Shown here: positions 2,817 to 63,270 of the stretch, piece by piece
Position numbering within the stretch: the first letter of the stretch is position 1
Layout of the letters: each line of letters starts with the position of its first letter
DNA from: a candidate division TA06 bacterium B3_TA06
GTDB lineage: Bacteria; Hydrothermota; Tepidihabitantia; B3-TA06
Length of the DNA stretch: 64,000 nucleotides
Direction: 5' to 3'
Assembly: GCA_005223075.1 (NCBI GenBank)
Contig: NJBO01000003.1
Coordinates: forward strand, 81,555-145,554
The notes under the pieces: generated by a model
Seen by the model: only the letters and a program-made list of their open reading frames with translations
The model's database searches: none
Told to the model about the DNA's origin: nothing
Translations under genes and position numbers: made by a program

Positions 2817-4739
2817 ATGACAGGCAAAAGCTCAAGGTCGGTTGACACCAAAGCGAGGGCAAGCAAGAGATCTCACGATTTTTCGGCACTCTCGCGGAGG
2901 ATACTGCAGTTCGCCAACCGCGGCGCGCCTAGGATTGAGTTCCAGCGCGAGGTCTCAAGGATGCTCATCCGCTTCTCCGGATGCGATGCGGTTGAGCTGC
3001 GCATCACCGACGGCAAGCTGCACTACCGGTGGGAAGCCAGGATGGAACCCAATGAGCGCTTTCAGTTCGAGAAACTCCCCTATATACAGGATGAGAAGGG
3101 GCTGGCGCTCCCATGCCTGCCGGATGGTTCAAGCCTGGAACAAACCTGTAAGATACTGTTAGGTGGTAACTTTGACAGCTCCTATCCTTACTTCACCAAA
3201 ACCGGCAGCTTCTGGACTGGCAACCTGAAGGAGGTGCTGAGTTCCCAAACGGGCGAGGAAACCCCTCCTGATCTGGCGTCTACCGGTGATTACTCCTCAC
3301 TCGCCATGATCCCTTTTGTAATAGACGATAACAATAACGGGCTGATTCAATTAAAAAGCAGAGAGAAGAACTTCTTTACCGTTGAAGAGATAGAGTTCTA
3401 CGAGGGCGTTGCCCAGACCATAGGGATAGCAATGGCAGGCCGCAGAGCACAGACCAAACTGCGTGAGCGCGTCAAGGAACTCTACTGCCTTTACGGGATA
3501 GCCCGACTGGTTGAGGAGCCGGGCATATCTCTTGAGAAGATCCTTCAGGGCATAGCCGATTTGTTGCCACCAGCCATGCGATACCCGGATATAGCCTCGG
3601 CTAGGATAATACTGGATGATAAGGATTACTGCTGCCCGCCGGAGTGTCACGAGACCCGCTACCGGCTGGCCGCGGATATCGTAGTCGAGGGAGTGAAACG
3701 AGGCGTGGTGGAGGTGTTCTACTCAGAGGAGAAGCCTGAGCTTGAGGTGGAGCTTTTCATCGCAGAGGAGCAGAGCCTTCTGGATGCTGTGGCCGCTCAG
3801 CTCGTGCTTATAATCGAACGCAGGCAGTGGGAAGCCGAACGGACCAAGCTTGAGGAACAGCTTCGTCACGCGGATCGCCTGGCTACTCTGGGCCAGCTTG
3901 CAGCAGGCGTGGCACACGAGCTTAACGAACCCCTGGAAGGTGTGCTTGGGTTTGCACAGCTTGCCCGCAAATCCGATGGTCTACCCAAGCAGGCAGGAAA
4001 AGATATCGAGAAGATCGAAAACGCAGCACTTCACGCCAGGGAGGTGGTAAGGAAGCTTCTCATATTCGCCCGTCAGATGCCCACCCATAAAACACTCCTC
4101 AACCTTAACCAGGTGGTGGAAGAAGGACTCTACTTCCTTGAGAGCCGCTGCGAAAAGGAGGGGATCGAGGTGGTGCGCGATCTTGCCGAGGGGCTGGCTG
4201 AGATCACCGCCGACCCGTCACAGCTGAACCAGGTGCTTATCAATCTGGTCGTAAATGGACTCCAGGCAATGTCTGGCGGAGGAAGGCTCACCATAAGAAC
4301 AAGAGCAACAGAGAAGAAGGTTATTCTGATCGTGGAGGATACGGGTGTGGGTATGGACGAGGAGGTTCAAAGACAGATATTCCTGCCCTTCTTTACCACA
4401 AAGGAGGTCGGGCAAGGAACCGGTCTTGGGTTGGCCGTGGTTCACGGGATCGTCACCTCACACGGGGGGACGATCGAGGTTGAAAGCAAGGAAGGCAAGG
4501 GATCACGCTTCACCGTAAAACTACCCCTTACCCGTACCCCTTCGGGGCATTCTCACAATTACTCGAAGCATACGCTCCGTTCAAAAGGGAATAACACCCG
4601 TAACACCCGTACCCCTTCGGGGCATTCTCACAATTACTCGGAGCATACGCTCCGTTCAAAAGGAAATAACACCCGTAACACCCGTAACACGCCTACGCGT
4701 CCTGAGGGACGCGATGAAACTAACAAGGAGACCGAATGA
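2817..4739 (+). CDS. cytoplasmic sensor histidine kinase (tandem GAF-like domains + HisKA + HATPase_c)
   Basis: H-box (LAAGVAHELNEPL), N/G boxes (NLVVNGLQAM, EDTGVGM, GTGLGLAVVHGI). No transmembrane segments are seen. The C-terminal tail is encoded by repeat DNA. The stop overlaps the start of the downstream response regulator. Confidence 0.85.
   Translation: MTGKSSRSVDTKARASKRSHDFSALSRRILQFANRGAPRIEFQREVSRMLIRFSGCDAVELRITDGKLHYRWEARMEPNERFQFEKLPYIQDEKGLALPCLPDGSSLEQTCKILLGGNFDSSYPYFTKTGSFWTGNLKEVLSSQTGEETPPDLASTGDYSSLAMIPFVIDDNNNGLIQLKSREKNFFTVEEIEFYEGVAQTIGIAMAGRRAQTKLRERVKELYCLYGIARLVEEPGISLEKILQGIADLLPPAMRYPDIASARIILDDKDYCCPPECHETRYRLAADIVVEGVKRGVVEVFYSEEKPELEVELFIAEEQSLLDAVAAQLVLIIERRQWEAERTKLEEQLRHADRLATLGQLAAGVAHELNEPLEGVLGFAQLARKSDGLPKQAGKDIEKIENAALHAREVVRKLLIFARQMPTHKTLLNLNQVVEEGLYFLESRCEKEGIEVVRDLAEGLAEITADPSQLNQVLINLVVNGLQAMSGGGRLTIRTRATEKKVILIVEDTGVGMDEEVQRQIFLPFFTTKEVGQGTGLGLAVVHGIVTSHGGTIEVESKEGKGSRFTVKLPLTRTPSGHSHNYSKHTLRSKGNNTRNTRTPSGHSHNYSEHTLRSKGNNTRNTRNTPTRPEGRDETNKETE
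4531..4700. repeat. two tandem 75-bp in-frame repeats (each with CCCCTTCGGGG hairpin) ending in ACCCGTAAC nonamer repeats; forms C-terminal tail of histidine kinase
   Basis: The period is 75 bp (4531 vs 4606). It encodes TRTPSGHSHNYS[K/E]HTLRSKGNNTRN twice, then NTRNT. Confidence 0.8.
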
Positions 4740-6073
4740 CGTCACCTGAAAGTGAACGCATCCTGATAGTAGATGACGCTGTTGATACCCTGGAGGTCCT
4801 ACAGCGTAATCTGGCATCACAGGGCTATCAGGTCTTTACCGCGCAAAACGTGCCGGAAGCCTTAAGGTTGCTTGAAGACACCCAGGTTGATCTGGTGATA
4901 ACCGATTTAAAGATGCCCGGGGCAAGTGGCCTGGATCTGGTGCGATACGTGCGGGAGAACCTTGCGGACACCGAGGTGATGATGATTACAGGATATGCCA
5001 CCGTAGAGGGTGCTGTTCAGGCGGTAAAGCAAGGGGCCGAGGAGTATCTTTCAAAGCCCTTTACCGACGAGGAGCTTTTCTTGGCGGTAAGAAAGGCGCT
5101 TGACAAACTACGTATGCGCAGGGCCGCGCAGGTATCCGAGGATATCCCGTCGCCTCATGGGATAATCGGCTCCTCAAAGGTCATGCGCGAGGTCTTCGGC
5201 GCCATCCATAAGGCGGCGTCAACCCCGGCTACGGTGCTCATCACAGGGGAAAGCGGCACTGGCAAGGAGCTTGTGGCCAGGGCTATCCACTACTCAAGCC
5301 CACGTGCCTCACCACCCTTCGTGCCTATCAACTGCGGGGCTATACCGCATGAACTCCTGGAATCGGAACTCTTCGGGTATGTTAAGGGTGCGTTTACCGG
5401 CGCGGCAACGACCAGGGCAGGTTTCTTTCAAACCGCAGACGGCGGCACCATCTTCCTTGACGAGATCAGTGAAACAAGTCCGGCCATGCAGGTTAAGCTC
5501 TTGCGGGTGCTGCAGGACAAGGAGATCTTCATGCTCGGCTCACGAAAATCCGAAAAGGTTGATGTGAGGATTATTGCCGCAACCAATAAAGACCTACAGG
5601 CCCTTGTCAAAAAGCAAAACTTCAGGGAGGACCTTTACTACCGCCTCAACGTCATTACCATTGATCTTCCACCGCTGCGGGAGAGGGATGACGACATACT
5701 CCTGATGCTGCGACATTTTACGGAAAAGTTTGCAGAGGAGCTTGGCAAACCCACACCTAGCTTCTCTGACGAAGCGCTTGAGGTTCTAAAGAACTACCAC
5801 TGGCCCGGTAACGTGCGGGAACTCGAGAACGTAACCCAACGGTTGGTGGTGATGGTGGAGGGGGATACGATAGATGTTAAGGATTTGCCGGCACTTATGC
5901 GCTTTTCTCCAAAGGCTCAGGGATTTGAAAGGACCTTGGCCGAGGTGGAGGCAGAACACATACGCAACGTGTTGGCAAGCGTTAACGGCAACAAAACCAA
6001 AGCAGCAGAGATACTCCAAATCGACCGAAAGACCTTGCGCGAAAAACTCAGGAAGATGGAAGAATCCCAGTAA
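4736..6073 (+). CDS. sigma-54-dependent response regulator (NtrC family: REC + AAA+ sigma-54 activator + Fis-type HTH)
   Basis: REC domain (D in VITDLKMPG), Walker A (GESGTGKE), GAFTGA motif present, C-terminal HTH (KTKAAEILQIDRKTLREKL). Confidence 0.9.
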   Translation: MTSPESERILIVDDAVDTLEVLQRNLASQGYQVFTAQNVPEALRLLEDTQVDLVITDLKMPGASGLDLVRYVRENLADTEVMMITGYATVEGAVQAVKQGAEEYLSKPFTDEELFLAVRKALDKLRMRRAAQVSEDIPSPHGIIGSSKVMREVFGAIHKAASTPATVLITGESGTGKELVARAIHYSSPRASPPFVPINCGAIPHELLESELFGYVKGAFTGAATTRAGFFQTADGGTIFLDEISETSPAMQVKLLRVLQDKEIFMLGSRKSEKVDVRIIAATNKDLQALVKKQNFREDLYYRLNVITIDLPPLRERDDDILLMLRHFTEKFAEELGKPTPSFSDEALEVLKNYHWPGNVRELENVTQRLVVMVEGDTIDVKDLPALMRFSPKAQGFERTLAEVEAEHIRNVLASVNGNKTKAAEILQIDRKTLREKLRKMEESQ

Positions 6074-6234
6074 GAAGGTGGGGCGTTTCTCCTCACCGGG
6101 ACACATCTCCCCGCCAATTTTAATCCAGGGGGAGACTGAAGCTGCATCCCAAAGCCCATCCATCCACTTCTAACTATTTAATCTAGCTTGACTTAACTAA
6201 GCCATCCTCATCGTAACTCACATTTAGGCTAGCC

Positions 6235-6250
6235 TGGCACGAATATTGCA
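6235..6250 (+). promoter_or_regulatory. sigma-54 (-24/-12) promoter: TGGCAC-N5-TTGCA
   Basis: An exact match (TGGCACgaataTTGCA) lies ~78 nt upstream of the ATG at 6328, which has AGGAGG as its RBS. It is immediately downstream of the sigma-54 activator gene. Confidence 0.7.
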
Positions 6251-6327
6251 AGCTAGGGGGTGAGTCGCTCACAAGGACGGCTCCTGGAAAAGCTCGTGAA
6301 AAGAAATCACACGCAAAGGAGGATTTC

Positions 6328-6630
6328 ATGCAGACATCAACAGTTCAAGAGACCAAAAAGGCTGTTAAGCCGAAGTATCGGGGGCTTTGCTCTACCTGCA
6401 AGAACGCTGCAACCTGCACCTTTCCTCGTGACCCCGCTCGTCCAATAATGCACTGCGACGAGTTCGACGGCTACGAGGGTCCAAAGACTAGGGTAGTCCC
6501 AAGGGTTGCCAAGCCAGAGGCCGCCGACGAGGTGGAGTTCAAAGGACTGTGCCGCAACTGCGAGAACCGTCATCACTGCGTCTTTCCCAAGCCTGCAGGC
6601 GGTGTTTGGCAGTGCGACGAGTATTGTTAG
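6328..6630 (+). CDS. small Cys-rich protein with internal duplication (2x C-x2-C-x4/5-C...C-D-E-F/Y); putative metal-binding, unknown function
   Basis: A strong RBS precedes the ORF. It has 8 Cys in two similar halves (CSTCKNAATCTFP...HCDEF; CRNCENRHHCVFP...QCDEYC). It is the first ORF after the sigma-54 promoter. Confidence 0.5.
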   Translation: MQTSTVQETKKAVKPKYRGLCSTCKNAATCTFPRDPARPIMHCDEFDGYEGPKTRVVPRVAKPEAADEVEFKGLCRNCENRHHCVFPKPAGGVWQCDEYC

Positions 6631-6671
6631 CAGGCTAAAGAGATGACAACCTAAAACCCAAGATTAGAGAT

Positions 6672-7934
6672 ATGAAAAAGGCGAGCGTTTACGATAACGT
6701 AACCAAGCAGTTTAACAAGGCTGCTGATTTGATGCATCTGGATCCTGAGATCCGCAAGGTACTTGCTAGAACCAACAATGAGGTAATCGTCAACTTTCCG
6801 GTTAAGATGGACGACGGCCACATCGAGATGTTCACCGGTTACCGGGTGCAGCACAACAACGTGCTTGGCCCTTACAAAGGGGGGCTGCGTTTTCACCCGG
6901 CGGTAGACATCGACGAGGTTCGCGCCCTTGCCACCTGGATGACATGGAAGTCGGCCATAGTGAACCTCCCGTTCGGTGGAGCAAAAGGCGGCATCCAGAT
7001 CGATCCATTCAAGTACTCGGCAAGCGAGCTTGAGCACATCACCCGCCGATTCACCTTTGCCCTGGGCTCGAACATAGGGCCTGAGTTCGACATCCCGGCA
7101 CCGGACGTAAACACCAACCCTCAGATAATGGCCTGGATCCTGGATACCTACCTCTCCACCATACCTGCCCACGAGCGTCAGGCGGCAGTCCATGTAGTTA
7201 CCGGCAAGCCTGTCGAGTCGGGTGGGAGCATAGGCCGCAACAAGGCTACTGGCCAGGGTGTGGTCTTTACCATCGAGCAGTGGGCCAAAGATACCAACTT
7301 TGATCTTGAGGGTGCGGCATACTTCGTTCAGGGATTCGGGAACGTGGGTTCCTGGGCGTCCCGTCTCCTCAAACCCCACGGTTCAAAGCTCGTTGCTGTC
7401 GAGGATGTAAGCGGGGCTATTGCCAATCCAAAGGGGATCGATCCCGACGACCTTTATGAGTATACGCAGAAGAATAAGGGATTGATTGGCGGCTACGCAA
7501 AGGCCAAACCTATTGATCACGAAACCTTCCTTGCGACCAAGGCCGACATCTTCATCCCGGCGGCTCTTGAGAACCAGATCACACTAAAGACCGCTCCAAT
7601 GCTTAACGTGAAGCTGGTTGCCGAAGGCGCAAACGGTCCCACCAATCCGGACGGTGATAAGATTCTTAATGAAAAGGGAACCGATCTTCTTCCAGACGTC
7701 CTTTGCAACGCGGGCGGCGTGATCGTAAGCTACTTCGAGTGGCTGCAGAACAAACGCAGCGAGTTCTGGGATCTTGAAGAGGTGGATGGAAAACTGCACC
7801 GCAAGATCGTTGCAGGCTACGAACGCGTTCGCGATACGGCTCGAGAGCACAACATAGACTGGCGAACCGCGGCCTACATCGTCGCTCTCTCACGTCTTGA
7901 AACGGTATACAAGGAACGTGGAATCTTCCCATGA
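6672..7934 (+). CDS. gdhA: glutamate dehydrogenase (Glu/Leu/Phe/Val dehydrogenase family), canonical
   Basis: PYKGGLRFHP and LPFGGAKGGI motifs intact; C-terminal NAD(P)-binding domain (VQGFGNVG). Confidence 0.9.
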   Translation: MKKASVYDNVTKQFNKAADLMHLDPEIRKVLARTNNEVIVNFPVKMDDGHIEMFTGYRVQHNNVLGPYKGGLRFHPAVDIDEVRALATWMTWKSAIVNLPFGGAKGGIQIDPFKYSASELEHITRRFTFALGSNIGPEFDIPAPDVNTNPQIMAWILDTYLSTIPAHERQAAVHVVTGKPVESGGSIGRNKATGQGVVFTIEQWAKDTNFDLEGAAYFVQGFGNVGSWASRLLKPHGSKLVAVEDVSGAIANPKGIDPDDLYEYTQKNKGLIGGYAKAKPIDHETFLATKADIFIPAALENQITLKTAPMLNVKLVAEGANGPTNPDGDKILNEKGTDLLPDVLCNAGGVIVSYFEWLQNKRSEFWDLEEVDGKLHRKIVAGYERVRDTAREHNIDWRTAAYIVALSRLETVYKERGIFP

Positions 7935-7937
7935 GCA

Positions 7938-7994
7938 GCCCCGTAACACCCGTAACACCCGTAACACCCGTAATACACGTAACACACGGTAACA
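7938..7994. repeat. (ACCCGTAAC)n nonamer tandem repeat, intergenic between the two gdh paralogs
   Basis: cccgtaac acccgtaac acccgtaac acccgtaat acacgtaac acacggtaac. Confidence 0.8.
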
Positions 7995-8008
7995 GCAAAC
8001 CGTAAGGA

Positions 8009-9277
8009 GTGATGATGAAGAAGGAAACCGGTTTCTACGGCGACGTTCTTGAGGGGCTCCATAATGCCGCGGATTTGATGAAGCTAGACTGTGAGGTTCT
8101 CAAAATCCTTACCAAGACTACCAACGAGATTACCGTCAACTTCCCGGTAAAGATGTCAAACGGTCTGGTGGAGATGTTCACTGGCTATCGTGTGCAGCAC
8201 AACAACGTGATGGGTCCCTACTCGGGCGGACTTCGCTTTCATCCCTGGGTTGATCTGGGAGAGATGCGCGCGCTTGCTACTGTGATGACGTGTAAGGCGG
8301 CTATCGCCGGTATCCCATTCGGCGGGGCTGCAGGCGGGATCCAGTTCAACCCCTCTGACTACAACTCCTCTGATGTGGAACGAATCACCCGCCGCTTTAC
8401 CTACTCACTTGGCTCGAACATCGGAGCGGAGTACGACATACTCACCTCGGACGTGAACACAAACCCCCAAACTATGGCCTGGATACTGGATACCTACCTC
8501 TCTACCATGCCTCCGGAAAAAAGGCAGGCCAAAACACACGTGGTCACCGGCAAACCCATCCACCTGGGCGGCAGCGTCGGACACGACAAAGCAGCGGGCC
8601 AGGGGCTTGTCTTTGCCATCGAGGAATGGGCAGCTGGTCACCGTTTCGATCTTGAGGGTGCTGCCTACACGGTTCAAGGATTCGGAAGTGTAGGTGTTTG
8701 GACCTCCATCTTGCTCAATCAAAAAGGAGCAAAACTCGTTGCCGTTGAGGATACCTCTGGGCCCATCCTTAACCCGGATGGAATTGATCCTGAAGACCTT
8801 TTCGCCTACGACAAGGAGAACGGACGCATAGCAGGCTACCCCAATGCAAAACCGATAGATCACGAGGCCTTCCTTGCTACAAAAGCCGATATATTCATCC
8901 CAGCCGCGTTGGAGTATCAGATCACCGCCCAGACCGCACCCAAGCTCAACGTCAAGTTGGTGGTCGAGGGAGCCGACTGCCCCTGCGATCGAGATGGCTC
9001 AAAGATCTTGAAGGAGAGGGGAATTGAGGTGCTCCCAGACATCCTGTGCAACTCCGGCGGCGTGATCGTGAGCTACTTCGAGTGGCTGCAGAACAAACGA
9101 AGCGAGCTGTGGGAACTTGAAGAGGTAGACCGCAAACTGCAGAACAAGATGAAGGACGCTTACCACCGGGTGCGCGACCGAGCAGCGGAGTTCAATACCG
9201 ACTGGTGCACCGCCGCACGCATCGAGGCACTTACCAGACTGGAGAGAATCTACAAGAGACGAGGTATCTTCCCGTAA
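8009..9277 (+). CDS. glutamate dehydrogenase-family paralog with substitutions at two conserved lysines (possible pseudo-enzyme or altered specificity)
   Basis: It aligns with the upstream GDH along its whole length. It has PYSGGLRFHP (K to S) and IPFGGAAGGI (catalytic K to A). The true start is probably the ATG at 8012 or 8015, after AAGGAG. Confidence 0.85.
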   Translation: MMMKKETGFYGDVLEGLHNAADLMKLDCEVLKILTKTTNEITVNFPVKMSNGLVEMFTGYRVQHNNVMGPYSGGLRFHPWVDLGEMRALATVMTCKAAIAGIPFGGAAGGIQFNPSDYNSSDVERITRRFTYSLGSNIGAEYDILTSDVNTNPQTMAWILDTYLSTMPPEKRQAKTHVVTGKPIHLGGSVGHDKAAGQGLVFAIEEWAAGHRFDLEGAAYTVQGFGSVGVWTSILLNQKGAKLVAVEDTSGPILNPDGIDPEDLFAYDKENGRIAGYPNAKPIDHEAFLATKADIFIPAALEYQITAQTAPKLNVKLVVEGADCPCDRDGSKILKERGIEVLPDILCNSGGVIVSYFEWLQNKRSELWELEEVDRKLQNKMKDAYHRVRDRAAEFNTDWCTAARIEALTRLERIYKRRGIFP

Positions 9278-9305
9278 CCCGTAACACCGTAACCCGTAAC
9301 ACGGG
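9271..9305. repeat. (CCCGTAAC)n repeat overlapping the gdh paralog stop codon
   Basis: The sequence is cccgtaacccgtaacaccgtaacccgtaacacggg. The TAA stop at 9275-9277 lies inside a repeat unit. Confidence 0.7.
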
Positions 9306-9310
9306 CATAA

Positions 9311-9360
9311 ATTTCCCCTAGAAGGGGTTCAGCTCAAACCAGGTCGGGGCCTGAGCCCCG
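9311..9360 (+). terminator. two GC hairpins (TTTCCCCTAGAAGGGG and CGGGGCCTGAGCCCCG) downstream of gdh operon; candidate terminator / palindromic element
   Basis: The stem-loops are visible directly. The first motif recurs at 61317-61340. Confidence 0.35.
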
Positions 9361-9448
9361 GCCTTTCTCTACACGTAGGTCTTTGTGAATAATACCGAGC
9401 GGATGAGCCTCAGAGGGTCGGGTGTCTGCCCTCAGACCGGGATTTATA

Positions 9449-10288
9449 TCACCGGAGGACGTAGCGCTGAGAACAAACAACCGCCTGGGAACCGAACACG
9501 CCCCAAGCACCTTCGATGTGCATGTAGTCTTCCACGCGGATGCCAGGGTCCCCGCGATCTTCTCCATAATACCGGTAGTCATAAGCGTTGGTGTCCAGAG
9601 CCGATACCCAGAACCAAAGGGAGTCGCCCCACAAATCAAGTTCCTCCAGAGGTATCGAGTAACTATCACCGGGCAACAACTCCGGATAGGTGAAAGCGGA
9701 ATCTATGTAGACTGTATCTGCGTCCTCATCCTCCCACGAGGCCCAGACAAATGCCTTCACCAGATAACCTGCGGCATCGCTGGACTTGCTCCACGCCAGG
9801 GTATCGGTAGTGGATATGGTGTCGGTCTGAAATCCCGTTATCTCGAAGCTTCCAGGAATAGTGGTCTGAGCCTCGATCTCCTCCCCCGAAGGATAGGTAA
9901 CCTCAAGCTCCCAGGTTTGGCCGGCCAAAAGCTGGATGGAATCTGAATAGTAGTATCCCACAGAGTCTTCGTTTTCGGCAAGAGCAAAACTCTGCTCGCC
10001 CTGTTTGAGGCTGACCTCTGCCCCGCTGACCCCGCTCCAGGGGAAAACTATCTCCAGCCAGACTTCAAACGTATCGTCATACCAGAAGGTATCCATGATG
10101 GTATCCGGCACCAGCGCCAGGGTATCGCCTACTGAAGTGGTTTTTCCAACCATGATGCACGCAAACGAGGAGTCGGTAGTGAGTACAGCATAGATATTAG
10201 GTTCACCTTCGTAGGTTTCCGGAGTGGTGTCGCAGGCGATTACGGATAAAAGAAGGATGATGGCGGGTATTATCCTGAATCTCATCAC
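9449..10288 (-). CDS. lipoprotein (DUF4249-like), partner of TonB-dependent receptor
   Basis: It has a signal peptide and lipobox (LLLSVIAC). It overlaps the stop of the upstream TonB-dependent receptor gene by 4 bp. Size and context fit DUF4249-type lipoproteins that follow SusC-like receptors. Confidence 0.5.
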   Translation of the reverse strand: MMRFRIIPAIILLLSVIACDTTPETYEGEPNIYAVLTTDSSFACIMVGKTTSVGDTLALVPDTIMDTFWYDDTFEVWLEIVFPWSGVSGAEVSLKQGEQSFALAENEDSVGYYYSDSIQLLAGQTWELEVTYPSGEEIEAQTTIPGSFEITGFQTDTISTTDTLAWSKSSDAAGYLVKAFVWASWEDEDADTVYIDSAFTYPELLPGDSYSIPLEELDLWGDSLWFWVSALDTNAYDYRYYGEDRGDPGIRVEDYMHIEGAWGVFGSQAVVCSQRYVLR

Positions 10289-12576
10289 AACCTGGCCCTT
10301 ATTCCAAAGCTGGGTATGGGGACGGGCAGCATCGGTACTGCTTCCCTTTGGGTGACTCCGTTTTCGTCAATCTCGTAGTCGTAGAAGAGTACGTTGCGCC
10401 TGGCGTAAACGTTGAGCACCTGGATGTAGAACTCGGCGTCGTAGCGCTTGAACAGCTTGAAGTGCTTGGTGAAGCCTGCGTCGAGGCGGTGATAGGGCGG
10501 ATAACGAACCTCGCCCCGTCTGCCCGAGATAGGCATCCAGTCAATCTCTCCCTCTTCATTAACATGCTGATACCAGCCTATCTGTGCTGTGAAGGGAAAA
10601 CCCGAACCGAACACCCACGCTGTGGTAAAGTTCCAGCCCTTGCCCAGAGGCAGCGCGAACGAGAAATTCACATTGTGCCGCGAGTCGTGCACCGGATAGA
10701 ACCAGTCGCTATCCTCAAAACGATACTTGGTAACCGAATAAGAGTAACCCAGCCAGGCCGAGCCGCGCTTGAGGAAAACCTCCGCACCGTATGAGTAGCC
10801 TTGCCCCATGGAGATGTCACCGGTATCTGTAGTGATCCCTTCTCCTCCAAACCAGGTGGCCTCGCGTATATTTCGTATATCCTTAAAGTAGGCCTCCACC
10901 GAAAGACTCATATCCTTACCAAAGAGGTGCTCTGTGCCCAAGGTAGCGAGTGTAGAGTGAAGCGGGGGATAGCGCTCGTCGGCCGGCATCCACTGCTGGA
11001 CGAACTGGACAGGCATCTTAAGCATCATCTCATCGCGGGGTAGGGGAACGCAAAGGTATTGATAGTAAAGCCCTGCTCCGGCCTTTATCGCCCAGGCGGC
11101 AGTGATCCGGCGCTTTATGCCTAACCGGGGAGAAACCCTCCAGTAATCTCCTTTAGAGAAGTACTCACCTCTCATGCCGGTTTCTATGACCCAGAAAGGG
11201 GTAGGTTCCCACTTATCCTGCACGTACGCAGCGGCAAGCCAGAAGGTGTCCCGCAGATCATAGAACACGGTATCCGTCTCCTCTTGAATGCTAGAGGTCT
11301 CAATAACCTTGCCCTCCAACCCGAACTCTAAAACATGTTCTGGTGCGGTGAACCAACTGAGTCCCCACTGCAGCCCCAGCTCACCGATTCCGCTGCGAAG
11401 CCTATAATAATACTCCTCACCGTTTCTCTCAACTACCTTGCTGTCAACCCGGTAACGAGTGGCATTGAATCCGAGAACGGAAAAAAGCTGAGGCGTGAAA
11501 AGGTAACGCCAGCGCAGCCCCAAAGTTCCATTCCCCCAACGGAAATCTAAATCCGTTACCCCTTCCTCCTCCTCATACCCTTCCTCTTCAGCCCCTTTCA
11601 ATGACAGCACGTCGTCGCCGAAGAAGCCGGAGACGGTGAACCGGGATCGTTCGCTGGCGTCCCAGTTCACCTTGGCCTGAAGATCGTAGAAGTGATAGGG
11701 GAGATAGATGGAGAAATCGGGATTGAATATCTTATCCAGCGTCCAGGTGATGGCATCAATGTAAGTCCTTCGTCCGGCAACAAGCCAGGAACCTTTGGCA
11801 CCCCAGGGAAGCGGCCCTTCCACGACAAGCTTGGAGGTCAAAAGCCCGATCTCTCCATAACCGGCTATCCGTTCGCTGTTGCCCGCCTTCATCTCCACGT
11901 CAAGCACCGAGGATATCGCTCCGCCGTAACGGGCCGGGTAACCGCCGGTATATAGCTCCGCCCCTTTGAGGGATTCGAGAATGAAGGTGGAAAAGAAGCC
12001 CAGCAGATGGTATGGGTTGTAGACGGTAACGCCGTCGAGCAGCACAAGGTTCTGATCCATGGTTCCCCCACGAATGTAAAGGGCAGAGGTAAAATCGGAG
12101 ACCGACACCACTCCGGGCAGCATATGTAAAGAACGAAACAGATCCTGCTCAACAAATCCCGGTATCTGCTTCAGCTCGCTGAGTTCAACGTGCCTTACCC
12201 CAACGTCGACCTCGTGCTCGAACCGCGCACGCTCCGCTGTTACCTCGACCGGTTCCATACCCAGGGGCTGGGGCTTAAGGTAGAAGTCGCGGCGCAGCCT
12301 CTTATCGGCTCTGACGTCTATCTCTAAGCGTTCCTCCCGATAACCTATCATCGAAACGATCAAGGTGTGCTTGCCCTCGGGTACACGTGAAAGCACGTAG
12401 TAGCCCTGCTTGTTGGTGGCGGTGCCCATGCTTTTATCGGCAAGATAAACGCTGACGTAGCTCAGGAACTCGCCTGACTCCGCTTCGCGCACGAACCCTG
12501 CAACCATTCCGGTCTCGGCGGCAAAAAGGAACTCCGTGAGAAAAAGCACTGCCCATATTATTCCCTTGCGCATACC
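10285..12576 (-). CDS. TonB-dependent outer-membrane receptor with N-terminal carboxypeptidase-regulatory-like domain
   Basis: It has a signal peptide (MRKGIIWAVLFLTEFLFAAE) and a CarbopepD_reg segment. A plug-like region follows (PVEVTAER...DLFRSLHMLPGV), then a long beta-barrel ending in aromatic residues. The ORF track start at 12639 is probably too far upstream. Confidence 0.75.
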   Translation of the reverse strand, partial: GMRKGIIWAVLFLTEFLFAAETGMVAGFVREAESGEFLSYVSVYLADKSMGTATNKQGYYVLSRVPEGKHTLIVSMIGYREERLEIDVRADKRLRRDFYLKPQPLGMEPVEVTAERARFEHEVDVGVRHVELSELKQIPGFVEQDLFRSLHMLPGVVSVSDFTSALYIRGGTMDQNLVLLDGVTVYNPYHLLGFFSTFILESLKGAELYTGGYPARYGGAISSVLDVEMKAGNSERIAGYGEIGLLTSKLVVEGPLPWGAKGSWLVAGRRTYIDAITWTLDKIFNPDFSIYLPYHFYDLQAKVNWDASERSRFTVSGFFGDDVLSLKGAEEEGYEEEEGVTDLDFRWGNGTLGLRWRYLFTPQLFSVLGFNATRYRVDSKVVERNGEEYYYRLRSGIGELGLQWGLSWFTAPEHVLEFGLEGKVIETSSIQEETDTVFYDLRDTFWLAAAYVQDKWEPTPFWVIETGMRGEYFSKGDYWRVSPRLGIKRRITAAWAIKAGAGLYYQYLCVPLPRDEMMLKMPVQFVQQWMPADERYPPLHSTLATLGTEHLFGKDMSLSVEAYFKDIRNIREATWFGGEGITTDTGDISMGQGYSYGAEVFLKRGSAWLGYSYSVTKYRFEDSDWFYPVHDSRHNVNFSFALPLGKGWNFTTAWVFGSGFPFTAQIGWYQHVNEEGEIDWMPISGRRGEVRYPPYHRLDAGFTKHFKLFKRYDAEFYIQVLNVYARRNVLFYDYEIDENGVTQREAVPMLPVPIPSFGIRARL

Positions 12577-41190: not shown

Positions 41191-41804
41191 AGCTGCTTTT
41201 GATTCTGTGGGGCGCGGTGATCGGGGTTGAGCGCTGGGTGATCATTACCCCTGGGGAGGAGGTGAACCGGCAGGAGATTTCGAGGTGGGTGGAGGTTTTG
41301 AGAACGGCTGAAAAGGTAGTGGACGATTTCTTCCCAGATCCCTCCGTGGGGGTAGGGTGGGAGAATGGTGTGTTACGGGTGTTACGGGTGGCGCCGTCTA
41401 GCGGGGATTTTGCCGCCTGGACCGGATGCTCGATCTGGCAGGGGGCTGCGTTAAAGAACGGAGAGCTGATCGTTCAGCCCCTGGCTGTTCTTGAACGTCG
41501 CGGGGTGCTTGAGGAGGTAGTGGTTCACGAGTACGTGCACCTTGTGCTTGAACCCTACAACGTCCCCCTTTGGGTGAATGAAGGGCTAGCCGTGATATGC
41601 TCTGGTCAGGTGAGAAAATTCTCACAGGATGCGGAGTTGAAGGATTTAACAGAAGACAAAGCCGAGATAGAAAAGCTGCTTGCAAGCAGTGATACGTTGG
41701 ATTTGCGGCTAGGTTATCTTGCAGCAGCGCGTTTGACTCAGGAAAAAATAGACGGAATAGGACTAGACAGTTTAGTCCGACTAATTAAAGAGGAGGCCTT
41801 ATGA
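41184..41804 (+). CDS. putative HExxH zinc-metallopeptidase-like protein
   Basis: HEYVH is followed by ...NEGLA, a gluzincin-like arrangement. The N-terminus is hydrophobic. The coding region contains an inverted nonamer repeat that encodes VLRVLRV. Confidence 0.45.
   Translation: MVKLLLILWGAVIGVERWVIITPGEEVNRQEISRWVEVLRTAEKVVDDFFPDPSVGVGWENGVLRVLRVAPSSGDFAAWTGCSIWQGAALKNGELIVQPLAVLERRGVLEEVVVHEYVHLVLEPYNVPLWVNEGLAVICSGQVRKFSQDAELKDLTEDKAEIEKLLASSDTLDLRLGYLAAARLTQEKIDGIGLDSLVRLIKEEAL
41369..41392. repeat. nonamer repeat (GTTACGGGT)n, the reverse complement of ACCCGTAAC, inside a coding region
   Basis: tgtgttacgggtgttacgggtggc. Confidence 0.6.
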
Positions 41805-62434: not shown

Positions 62435-63270
62435 GTTCCAAAATCCTGGTTAGCCTTGAGGACGTCAGTGTACGCTTTCAAGAGCTCACGGCTCTTCATG
62501 ATGTGAACATCCAGATAACGGCGGGCTCATCCACGGCGCTCATAGGTCCGAACGGGGGCGGGAAGACAACGCTTCTCAAGGTGATAGCAGGCCTTATCAA
62601 GCCTACCCAGGGAAGGGTGCGTTACTATGATCTCAAGCGCGCCAGGATAGGTTACGTTCCCCAGGAGAGCGTGGTTGACTGGCGCTTCCCTGTGAGTGCC
62701 CTGGATGTGGTGCTCATGGGACGGTACCCGGCTTTAGGGCTCATAAGACGAGCGGGCAGGCACGACCGCGAGATCGCACTTACTATGCTTGCTCGCGTGG
62801 GGCTTAGGGATGTGGCCAAGCGTCCGGTAGGGGCACTATCCGGCGGGCAGAAGCAGCGCGTGGCCATCGCCCGTGCGCTTGTTGGTGAGCCGAAGCTTAT
62901 CCTGCTCGACGAACCCACCTCAGGCGCGGACGTTGAGGCAAAGGACCGTTTCTATTCCCTTATCCGCGAGTTGAAGAAGGAACTTTCCCTCACCATACTG
63001 GTGGCAAGCCACGATCTTGTGGTGGTGCCGAGTTTCGTTGACGATGTGGCCTGCGTGGCGAAGAGTGTGCATCTGCACGCTTGTCCCTCCGAGATCTGGG
63101 ATGAGGAACATTTCCAGCGGTTATACGGGACCCAGATGGAGGCGATCTTCCACGGAAAGGTCCCCCACCGAATGGTTGCACCCCACGCGAAGGCGAAGCC
63201 TTCGCGTGGGGACCCCGCCCGTACCCGTAACACCCGTAACACACCAAAATCGGAGAAGGGGAAGAGATAG
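62431..63270 (+). CDS. znuC: metal ABC transporter ATP-binding protein (ZnuC-like) with repeat-encoded C-terminal tail
   Basis: Walker A is GPNGGGKTT, the signature is LSGGQKQR and Walker B is LILLDEP. The tail ...RGDPARTRNTRNTPKSEKGKR is encoded by the hairpin plus nonamer repeats. Confidence 0.85.
   Translation: MSSKILVSLEDVSVRFQELTALHDVNIQITAGSSTALIGPNGGGKTTLLKVIAGLIKPTQGRVRYYDLKRARIGYVPQESVVDWRFPVSALDVVLMGRYPALGLIRRAGRHDREIALTMLARVGLRDVAKRPVGALSGGQKQRVAIARALVGEPKLILLDEPTSGADVEAKDRFYSLIRELKKELSLTILVASHDLVVVPSFVDDVACVAKSVHLHACPSEIWDEEHFQRLYGTQMEAIFHGKVPHRMVAPHAKAKPSRGDPARTRNTRNTPKSEKGKR
63182..63246. repeat. perfect 11-5-11 hairpin (CCACGCGAAGG-CGAAG-CCTTCGCGTGG) followed by (ACCCGTAAC)n repeats, inside 3' end of znuC-like gene
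   Basis: It is visible directly. It has the same composite structure (GC hairpin plus nonamers) as the HK tail at 4531-4700. Confidence 0.7.

Follow-up and report, generated by a model that had tools for sequence, protein, structure and literature searches.

A sigma-54 promoter ahead of glutamate dehydrogenase genes in a candidate division TA06 bacterium, very probably the output of a dedicated two-component circuit

We analyzed a 64,000-nucleotide stretch of DNA (the window) from the candidate division TA06 bacterium B3_TA06 (assembly GCA_005223075.1, contig NJBO01000003.1, positions 81,555 to 145,554), in which a sigma-54 (-24/-12) promoter element at 6235-6250 lies between the gene for an NtrC-family response regulator and an operon encoding a Cys-rich protein and two glutamate dehydrogenase (GDH) homologues. 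The sequence and geometry of this element, its retention in related loci from many phyla and the presence of a conserved tandem element upstream of it make it very probable that this is a functional sigma-54 promoter serving as the output of a dedicated two-component circuit.

The promoter element

The features around the promoter are as follows (window coordinates).
4736-6073, + strand: NtrC-family response regulator, a sigma-54 enhancer-binding protein of 445 amino acids (Pfam domains and GAFTGA motif)
6078-6113, + strand: putative upstream activator sequence of two 18-bp units, GTGGGGCGTTTCTCCTCA and CCGGGACACATCTCCCCG (35.3 bits with a position weight matrix)
6125-6137, - strand: possible third, inverted half-site CCAGGGGGAGACT, whose reverse complement contains TCTCCCC (read from the sequence)
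6235-6250, + strand: sigma-54 (-24/-12) promoter TGGCACGAATATTGCA (exact consensus match and conservation)
6316-6323, + strand: Shine-Dalgarno sequence AAGGAGGA of the Cys-rich open reading frame (ORF), read from the sequence and conserved in an alignment of Stahlbacteria/WOR-3 spacers
6328-6630, + strand: Cys-rich protein of 100 amino acids, the first gene of the operon (the ORF that follows AAGGAGGA)

The element reads TGGCAC-GAATA-TTGCA within the context ...tagccTGGCACGAATATTGCAagct... and fits the extended consensus TGGCACG-N4-TTGCW at 16 of 16 specified positions, with the GG at 6236-6237 and the GC at 6248-6249 set 10 bp apart. The window, both strands included, contains no second exact match to TGGCAC-N5-TTGCW. 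Dinucleotide-preserving shuffles gave a chance expectation of 0.07 (at least one match in 7 of 100 shuffles), and relaxing the search to one mismatch brought in a single additional site. The element falls within the 254-bp spacer that separates the regulator ORF from the Cys-rich ORF; it starts 162 bp past the regulator stop codon (6071-6073) and ends 78 nt before the ATG at 6328. An earlier note on this DNA, made by a model from the letters alone, had claimed an exact -24/-12 consensus about 160 bp from a sigma-54 activator gene and about 80 nt ahead of an ORF with a strong ribosome-binding site, and each of these claims was borne out. From the usual promoter spacing, transcription would start near 6260-6262. 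A consensus scan of the spacer found no sigma-70-like promoter on the + strand, and an Rfam scan of 5900-9600 returned nothing at an E value of 1 or below.

We then looked at the element in related loci. A homologue scan with one genome per species gave 500 relatives of the Cys-rich protein, of which the best 80 loci were used, and the proteins of the window were mapped onto 87 loci in all. The best 80 loci span Stahlbacteria/WOR-3, Zixibacteria, Planctomycetota, Verrucomicrobiota, Ignavibacteria, Thermodesulfobacteriota, KSB1, TA06, Coatesbacteria, Cloacimonadota, Acidobacteriota, Spirochaetota and others, the closest (L008) being from Candidatus Stahlbacteria E44_bin36 at 99% identity, which places the window in a Stahlbacteria (WOR-3) genome. 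A locus on contig SOJW01000020.1 of E44_bin36 encodes proteins 91-99% identical to those of the window. Statistics for the promoter, and for the upstream element described below, were computed over 72 unique spacers between the regulator and the Cys-rich ORF; for the promoter, GG-N10-GC was required and mismatches were counted against TGGCACG-N4-TTGCW. Sites with at most two mismatches were present on the sense strand of 51 of the 72 spacers, compared with 1 of 72 on the antisense strand and 0.42 in shuffles, and at most three mismatches were needed for a sense-strand site in 63 of 72. Five Stahlbacteria/WOR-3 loci (L001, L003, L008, L009 and L010) carry a perfect promoter at the equivalent place, and in an alignment of four Stahlbacteria/WOR-3 spacers the -24/-12 element, the ribosome-binding site and the upstream element are conserved amid diverged sequence. 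Because the match is kept at the equivalent place in Stahlbacteria/WOR-3 genomes whose spacers have diverged, and is kept across phyla, we conclude from these comparisons that it is not due to chance. Where the Cys-rich ORF occurs a second time within an operon, the second copy has no -24/-12 site ahead of it.

One of the WOR-3 loci holds another perfect sigma-54 consensus, TGGCACGGAAATTGCT (L001, 19185-19200, - strand). It precedes some 12 arrayed SpoIIAA-like/STAS genes and a gene for an anti-sigma-type HATPase; these genes, unrelated to the module studied here, may be a partner-switching gene array driven by sigma-54. Given this further element, sigma-54 seems to have a wider use in these bacteria.

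A conserved element upstream of the promoter

Enrichment of 7-mers in the spacers, followed by iterative profile fitting, revealed a 36-bp tandem element. The 7-mer TCTCCCC was present in 43 of the 72 spacers, compared with 6.8 in control segments, and the full element was found in 71 of the 72, with scores of 15-53 bits against a highest shuffle score of 1.4. Its consensus is CCGGGGAAATTCTCCCCGGTGGTTCAAATCTCCCCG, i.e. CCGGGGAAATTCTCCCCG followed by GTGGTTCAAATCTCCCCG. The copy in the window reads GTGGGGCGTTTCTCCTCACCGGGACACATCTCCCCG and has its center 139 bp before the first base of the -24/-12 motif, the median distance from element center to -24 over the 72 spacers being 172 bp (interquartile range 157-183). 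The window copy was the one high-scoring site in a scan of the whole window (the same site read on the reverse strand scored 19.9 bits); the single other match, a weak one of 15.2 bits at 11143 on the minus strand, is unrelated. When both strands of the fetched loci (830 kb) were scanned, all matches of at least 18 bits lay upstream of a regulated operon. The possible third half-site at 6125-6137 is conserved in two of the Stahlbacteria loci (L008 and L010).

The earlier note had pointed to about 6100-6220 as the interval to search for upstream activator sites, and a search for such sites brought up the conserved element at 6078-6113. Conserved repeats about 80-200 bp upstream of the promoter, together with an activator gene, mark the element as a putative upstream activator site, and the near invariance of the regulator's helix-turn-helix (HTH) segment across phyla fits a conserved DNA site.

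An alternative explanation is that the element is part of the kinase-regulator transcript at its 3' end, functioning as RNA or as a terminator, and that the true activator sites are elsewhere. Unit 1 has the consensus CCGGGGA-AATTC-TCCCCGG, a 7-bp palindrome that could form a hairpin, and in most loci the element directly follows the regulator stop codon. However, the element is not followed by a U-tract; the sequence of unit 2 (GGTTCAAATCTCCCC) is conserved but not self-complementary; no Rfam family matches the region; and the element also heads Cys-rich ORF operons that have no regulator gene upstream. In the long spacers (L035, L039, L010, L065 and L046) the element tracks the promoter at 126-181 bp while lying up to about 600 bp from the regulator stop codon. 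This constant distance to the promoter favors an enhancer over a 3'-end element, and we regard the RNA explanation as improbable.

Matches to the IHF-like sequence YAANNNNTTGATW occur between enhancer and promoter in 20 of 63 spacers, compared with 12.4 in shuffles, and they gather at -60 to -90, mostly in one orientation. The candidate in the window, TAACTATTTAATC (about 6171-6183), has two mismatches; as the enrichment is suggestive at most, we do not claim an IHF site as part of the system. A loose motif, (T/A)AACTCATTG(A/G)TT...GACTTAG, is found in many loci at 60-90 bp ahead of -24 and resembles an IHF site in one orientation; its copy in the window (6171-6199, TAACTATTTAATC ... GACTTAAC) is degenerate.

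The kinase and the regulator

Two further features lie upstream of the regulator gene.
2778-2805, + strand: sigma-70-like promoter, TTGACA-16-TAGTAT (10 of 12 consensus matches)
2817-4739, + strand: histidine kinase of 640 amino acids (Pfam HisKA and HATPase_c)

The regulator matches Pfam Response_reg (3e-28), Sigma54_activat (4.6e-72), AAA_lid_14 and HTH_8 (9e-14). The REC, AAA+ and Fis-type HTH parts are thus all present, with the GAFTGA motif encoded at 5387-5404, as expected for the GAFTGA-bearing sigma-54 activator that had been proposed. Its orthologues are 59-98% identical over all loci, with about 70% between phyla and about 60-75% across most of the phyla sampled, and the HTH segment GNKTxAAEILGIDRKTLREKL is nearly invariant. 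Against the NCBIfam NtrC equivalog TIGR01818 the regulator scored 442 bits, short of the cut-off of 558.6; it is also below the cut-offs of the AtoC, ZraR and GlrR equivalogs, with NtrC and AtoC being the nearest.

The kinase stop codon overlaps the regulator start codon (ATGA). The kinase scored 114.8 bits against NCBIfam NR(II) (NF008293; cut-off 240), with just the HisKA/HATPase part aligning, and although its nearest relatives in NCBIfam are AtoS and ZraS it missed every equivalog cut-off. On these profile comparisons the pair belongs to the NtrC family, yet is not NtrBC. The 2778-2805 promoter likely drives the kinase-regulator operon; sigma-70-like consensus matches are not enriched over shuffles in this region.

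The kinase had been described as a soluble GAF-domain protein. The first part of this description appears to hold, in that no long hydrophobic stretch was seen by eye; the GAF assignment did not reach threshold (see below). The N-terminal sensor region (residues about 1-340) contains the weak GAF match and a conserved RERxKELxCLYxI motif, followed by HisKA and HATPase_c, and had no match among PDB sequences. Between the weak GAF match and HisKA, the RERxKELxCLYxI motif leads into a domain of about 110 amino acids without a Pfam match (kinase residues about 212-335, window 3450-3830). In a comparison of 39 kinase orthologues this segment is conserved, and it is the part of the protein that may in fact do the sensing.

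The genes behind the promoter

Downstream of the Cys-rich ORF the operon contains the following features.
6672-7934, + strand: GDH1, a glutamate dehydrogenase with an intact active site (YKGGLRF, PFGGAKGG)
8009-9277, + strand: GDH2, a paralogue of GDH1 with the catalytic Lys replaced by Ala (PFGGAAGG) and YKGG changed to YSGG
9341-9371, + strand: 10-bp GC-rich hairpin GGUCGGGGCC...GGCCCCGGCC followed by UUUCUCU after GDH2, a probable operon terminator (not called by the consensus scanner)

GDH1 carries both ELFV domains (PF00208 and PF02812) and both the catalytic and the substrate Lys, and is predicted to be catalytically competent. GDH2 is 67% identical to GDH1 and retains the ELFV domains; its annotated GTG at 8009 overlaps the ribosome-binding site, and the true start is more likely the ATG at 8012 or 8015. 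The proposal of two GDH genes therefore stands as regards family, both products being ELFV homologues, but without the catalytic Lys GDH2 is probably not a second enzyme. The same pattern was seen in every tandem GDH pair for which both copies were recovered (the window, L001, L003, L008, L009, L019, L021, L022, L024, L026-L028, L032, L045 and L058): the first copy keeps the catalytic Lys and the second always has A, Y, S, N or M in its place. The second copies often also lack the substrate-binding Lys of the KGG motif, while the dinucleotide-binding motif is retained. Loss of the catalytic Lys is therefore, in these alignments, a conserved trait of the second gene, and GDH2 is probably a non-catalytic, regulatory subunit, i.e. 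a pseudoenzyme.

A precedent exists in Thermus thermophilus, whose GdhA/GdhB hexamer contains GdhA as an inactive, regulatory subunit (PMC9570180). As there, two GDH paralogues are present of which one is inactive or, in the case of GDH2, lacks the catalytic Lys. However, the catalytic chain 3AOE_A (GdhB, E 1.5e-90) is a closer match to GDH2 than is 3AOE_E (GdhA, 1.5e-69). Because of this, and because GDH2 is 67% identical to its neighbor, the parallel with GdhA is probably one of function and not of orthology, activity having been lost independently. To our knowledge Thermus is the single example of a regulatory GDH pseudo-subunit, and the recurrence of a Lys-less paralogue suggests that such subunits are far commoner.

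The Cys-rich protein consists of two GLCxxCx5Cx12C(D/E)E(F/Y) repeats with eight invariant Cys. Its homologues (688 clusters in a profile search) are exclusively hypothetical proteins without a Pfam domain or functional name, and the protein itself matched no Pfam or NCBIfam family at threshold. A search of its profile against PDB sequences gave spurious matches alone and no relative, and AlphaFold runs with 29 and 86 sequences yielded no confident model (predicted local distance difference test, pLDDT, of 50 and 55). CX2CX5C spacing is known from the [4Fe-4S] ligands of WhiB-like proteins and Endonuclease III, and each repeat has CX2CX5C plus a fourth Cys, which here lies C-terminal and not N-terminal to the others. 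We treat this likeness as a lead and not as a result. Membership of a WhiB-like or other [4Fe-4S] family is not supported by profile matches, as a Pfam scan of 86 members gave sub-threshold matches alone and these in a minority (Whib in 5 of 86, best E 0.014; RseC_MucC in 17 of 86). It is conceivable, although we hold the idea only tentatively, that the 8-Cys protein, in every case the first product of the sigma-54 transcript, is a new metal-cluster (probably Fe-S) component of glutamate-node control, which would either partner the GDH1/GDH2 hetero-oligomer and the NuoEF-type complex described below or feed back on the kinase or regulator. If so, the kinase, regulator, enhancer and Cys-rich protein would together form an undescribed cross-phylum system for control of the glutamate/2-oxoglutarate node in anaerobic, mostly uncultured bacteria.

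The gene order kinase, sigma-54 regulator, Cys-rich ORF recurs in many of the 87 loci, from about a dozen phyla. What follows the Cys-rich ORF is one of three arrangements: tandem GDH genes, a glutamate synthase-like cluster, or both (Cys-GDH-Cys-NuoE...). The cluster comprises NuoE-like, NuoF-GltD fusion, Fer2_4 and Glu_synthase-domain genes. Among 91 unique copies of the Cys-rich ORF, 44 stand ahead of this cluster and 31 ahead of GDH. The flanking genes differ between genomes, so the module itself is the conserved unit. We also asked whether subfamilies of the Cys-rich protein track the downstream enzyme; nearest neighbors agreed in 64 of 75 cases compared with 38 under the null, a figure that is confounded by taxonomy and was not used.

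An example of the cluster behind enhancer, promoter and Cys-rich ORF is at 4389-10981 of L004, where the NuoF-GltD fusion is 1057 amino acids long; others are found in L006, L013, L015, L016, L020 and many further loci. In make-up the cluster recalls Bfu/NfnABC-type modules to which a GltB core has been joined; the flank that was fetched showed no amidotransferase gene. The cluster may encode an NADH/ferredoxin-linked glutamate synthase or glutamate oxidoreductase.

The proposed circuit and its alternatives

We propose that the kinase and regulator are probably transcribed constitutively from the sigma-70-type promoter, and that the apparently cytoplasmic kinase would respond to a signal, perhaps an intracellular metabolite of the glutamate/2-oxoglutarate node, by phosphorylating the regulator. 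The phosphorylated regulator would oligomerize on the tandem enhancer and loop to sigma-54 holoenzyme at 6235-6250, where ATP hydrolysis via GAFTGA would open the promoter. The resulting transcript, starting near 6260 and probably ending at the hairpin, would encode the 8-Cys protein, GDH1 and GDH2, with GDH2 most likely assembling with GDH1 as a regulatory subunit. In related genomes the cassette would drive the NuoE/NuoF-GltD/Fer2_4/GltB glutamate synthase-like complex instead of, or besides, GDH, which suggests that its constant job is to activate the interconversion of glutamate and 2-oxoglutarate plus ammonium. According to published genome surveys, Stahlbacteria are fermentative (PMC5569505); a catabolic GDH would fit this lifestyle, which does not in itself show such a role.

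The synteny of kinase, regulator, Cys-rich ORF and glutamate enzyme genes across about a dozen phyla argues that the circuit is dedicated. Together with the conserved promoter and enhancer, it supports the linkage of kinase, activator, promoter and GDH genes into one circuit that the earlier note had suggested. The promoter could instead be real but served by a different enhancer-binding protein, the adjacent two-component system being a chance neighbor or controlling something else. Enhancer-binding proteins can act in trans, and in some related loci, L076 and L082 among them, the Cys-rich ORF operon has enhancer and promoter with no kinase or regulator gene in the fetched flank. However, most loci retain the regulator gene next to the promoter, the regulator HTH is nearly invariant, as is the enhancer sequence, and the trans cases carry this same enhancer, as would fit one regulator family with several targets; we therefore consider control by another activator to be unlikely in much the same degree as, if anything slightly more so than, the RNA explanation above.

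Several observations nevertheless weigh against the dedicated circuit. All of the comparison sequences are metagenome-assembled. Under the strict GG/GC filter, 9 of the 72 spacers have no promoter match. The enhancer matrix was trained on the spacers that it scores, a circularity that the shuffle and whole-locus controls mitigate in part, and the palindrome of unit 1 leaves room for an RNA hairpin at the end of the regulator transcript. The GAF match of the kinase, at 24.4 bits, is below the Pfam gathering threshold of 28.6. The steps that go beyond sequence features, conservation and geometry are our inferences: that the regulator binds the enhancer, where transcription starts, what the kinase senses (including the nitrogen/carbon status named in the earlier note), that GDH1 and GDH2 form hetero-oligomers, and what the Cys-rich protein does. 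Finally, no RpoN box was found in six-frame translations of the window and the 87 loci, and the Stahlbacteria/WOR-3 papers make no mention of rpoN or of glutamate metabolism.

The failure to observe rpoN in these sequences, like the 7 in 100 shuffles that hold an exact match somewhere in the window, would also suit a chance or relic -24/-12 match, with the Cys-rich ORF and GDH genes transcribed by a housekeeping sigma factor or by read-through, but this is very improbable given that the match stands in a 254-bp spacer without a sigma-70-like promoter, on the correct strand and adjoining an intact GAFTGA activator, and that its position is conserved across phyla with the strand bias described above.

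Comparison with known systems

The nearest textbook counterpart is NtrB/NtrC at glnAp2, with which the present system shares its make-up of histidine kinase and REC-AAA+-HTH regulator. In both, activator sites are arranged in tandem more than 100 bp ahead of a -24/-12 promoter, and the target is an enzyme of ammonium and glutamate metabolism. There are also clear differences. The sensor region of about 340 amino acids is unrelated to that of NtrB, and neither glnB nor glnK was noticed when the genes annotated in the locus were read. The NtrC site is TGCACC-N5-GGTGCA, whereas the enhancer consensus here is of the GGGGAAATTCTCCCC type. The targets here are GDH or the glutamate synthase-like complex, plus the 8-Cys protein.

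Precedents for sigma-54 control of GDH exist elsewhere. In Bacillus subtilis, RocR and SigL switch on rocG, which encodes a catabolic GDH (PMC10404663, PMC4348106). As proposed here, a sigma-54-type factor and a dedicated enhancer-binding protein activate a GDH gene; the rocG system differs in having a single active GDH with neither a Lys-less paralogue nor a Cys-rich leader gene. RocR is moreover a one-component activator and not a response regulator with a kinase. In Geobacter sulfurreducens, the GDH gene GSU1305 and the glutamate synthase (GOGAT) operon GSU1239 are reported to be RpoN-dependent (PMC2725144). Control by RpoN over both glutamate-forming routes parallels the alternation of GDH and glutamate synthase-like genes in our loci; the Geobacter case is a regulon-level observation, and we found no report there of a dedicated kinase/regulator/Cys-rich ORF cassette or of this enhancer.

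The arrangement is therefore less unorthodox than the earlier note had supposed, as RocR/SigL and Geobacter provide precedents for the sigma-54/GDH pairing. The regulatory logic (two-component activator, enhancer and -24/-12 promoter) is canonical and not new. In the searchable literature we found these general precedents alone, and nothing on the cassette, its enhancer or the Cys-rich protein family. The analysis defines a cassette with a conserved regulator, a nearly invariant HTH and a clear enhancer consensus, distributed over about a dozen phyla of mostly uncultured bacteria. In most loci with recovered downstream genes it heads enzymes of the glutamate/2-oxoglutarate node, and it thus offers a testable handle on how poorly studied anaerobes regulate the junction of carbon and nitrogen metabolism. 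Two families merit experiments: the unannotated 8-Cys proteins in their 688 clusters and the recurrent Lys-less GDH paralogue.

Repeat elements in the locus

Two repeat features lie within the locus.
4530-4686, + strand: 75-bp unit in 2.1 tandem copies at the 3' end of the kinase gene, ending in CCCGTAACA repeats
7940-7994, + strand: six copies of CCCGTAACA in the 74-nt spacer between GDH1 and GDH2, with copy number differing in L008, L009 and L010

The 75-bp unit contains a CCCCTTCGGGG hairpin and ends in CCCGTAAC repeats; read in frame, it forms the low-complexity C-terminal tail of the kinase (...TPSGHSHNYS.HTLRSKGNNTRNTR...). At the end of the kinase gene L008 has one copy (about 7590-7650) and L009 none, and a related unit is present in the GDH1-GDH2 spacer of L008. 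It looks like a small strain-variable repeat element.

The 9-nt CCCGTAACA, allowing at most one mismatch, has 20 matches in the window compared with 8.3 expected, a number equalled in none of 100 shuffles. The matches form arrays at 4592-4611, 4667-4690, 7940-7994, 9271-9302, 41370-41390 (- strand) and 63223-63242. Four of these six are in the GDH locus, and most are sense-oriented at or just after the 3' ends of genes. Arrays occur at equivalent positions in L008 (7585-7680 and 8953-8990), L009 (6056-6085 and 7367-7382) and L010 (7662-7708), with copy numbers that vary among Stahlbacteria, and are absent at those positions from the WOR-3 loci L001 and L003. They could represent a microsatellite, or else an array to which a protein binds at the RNA or DNA level.

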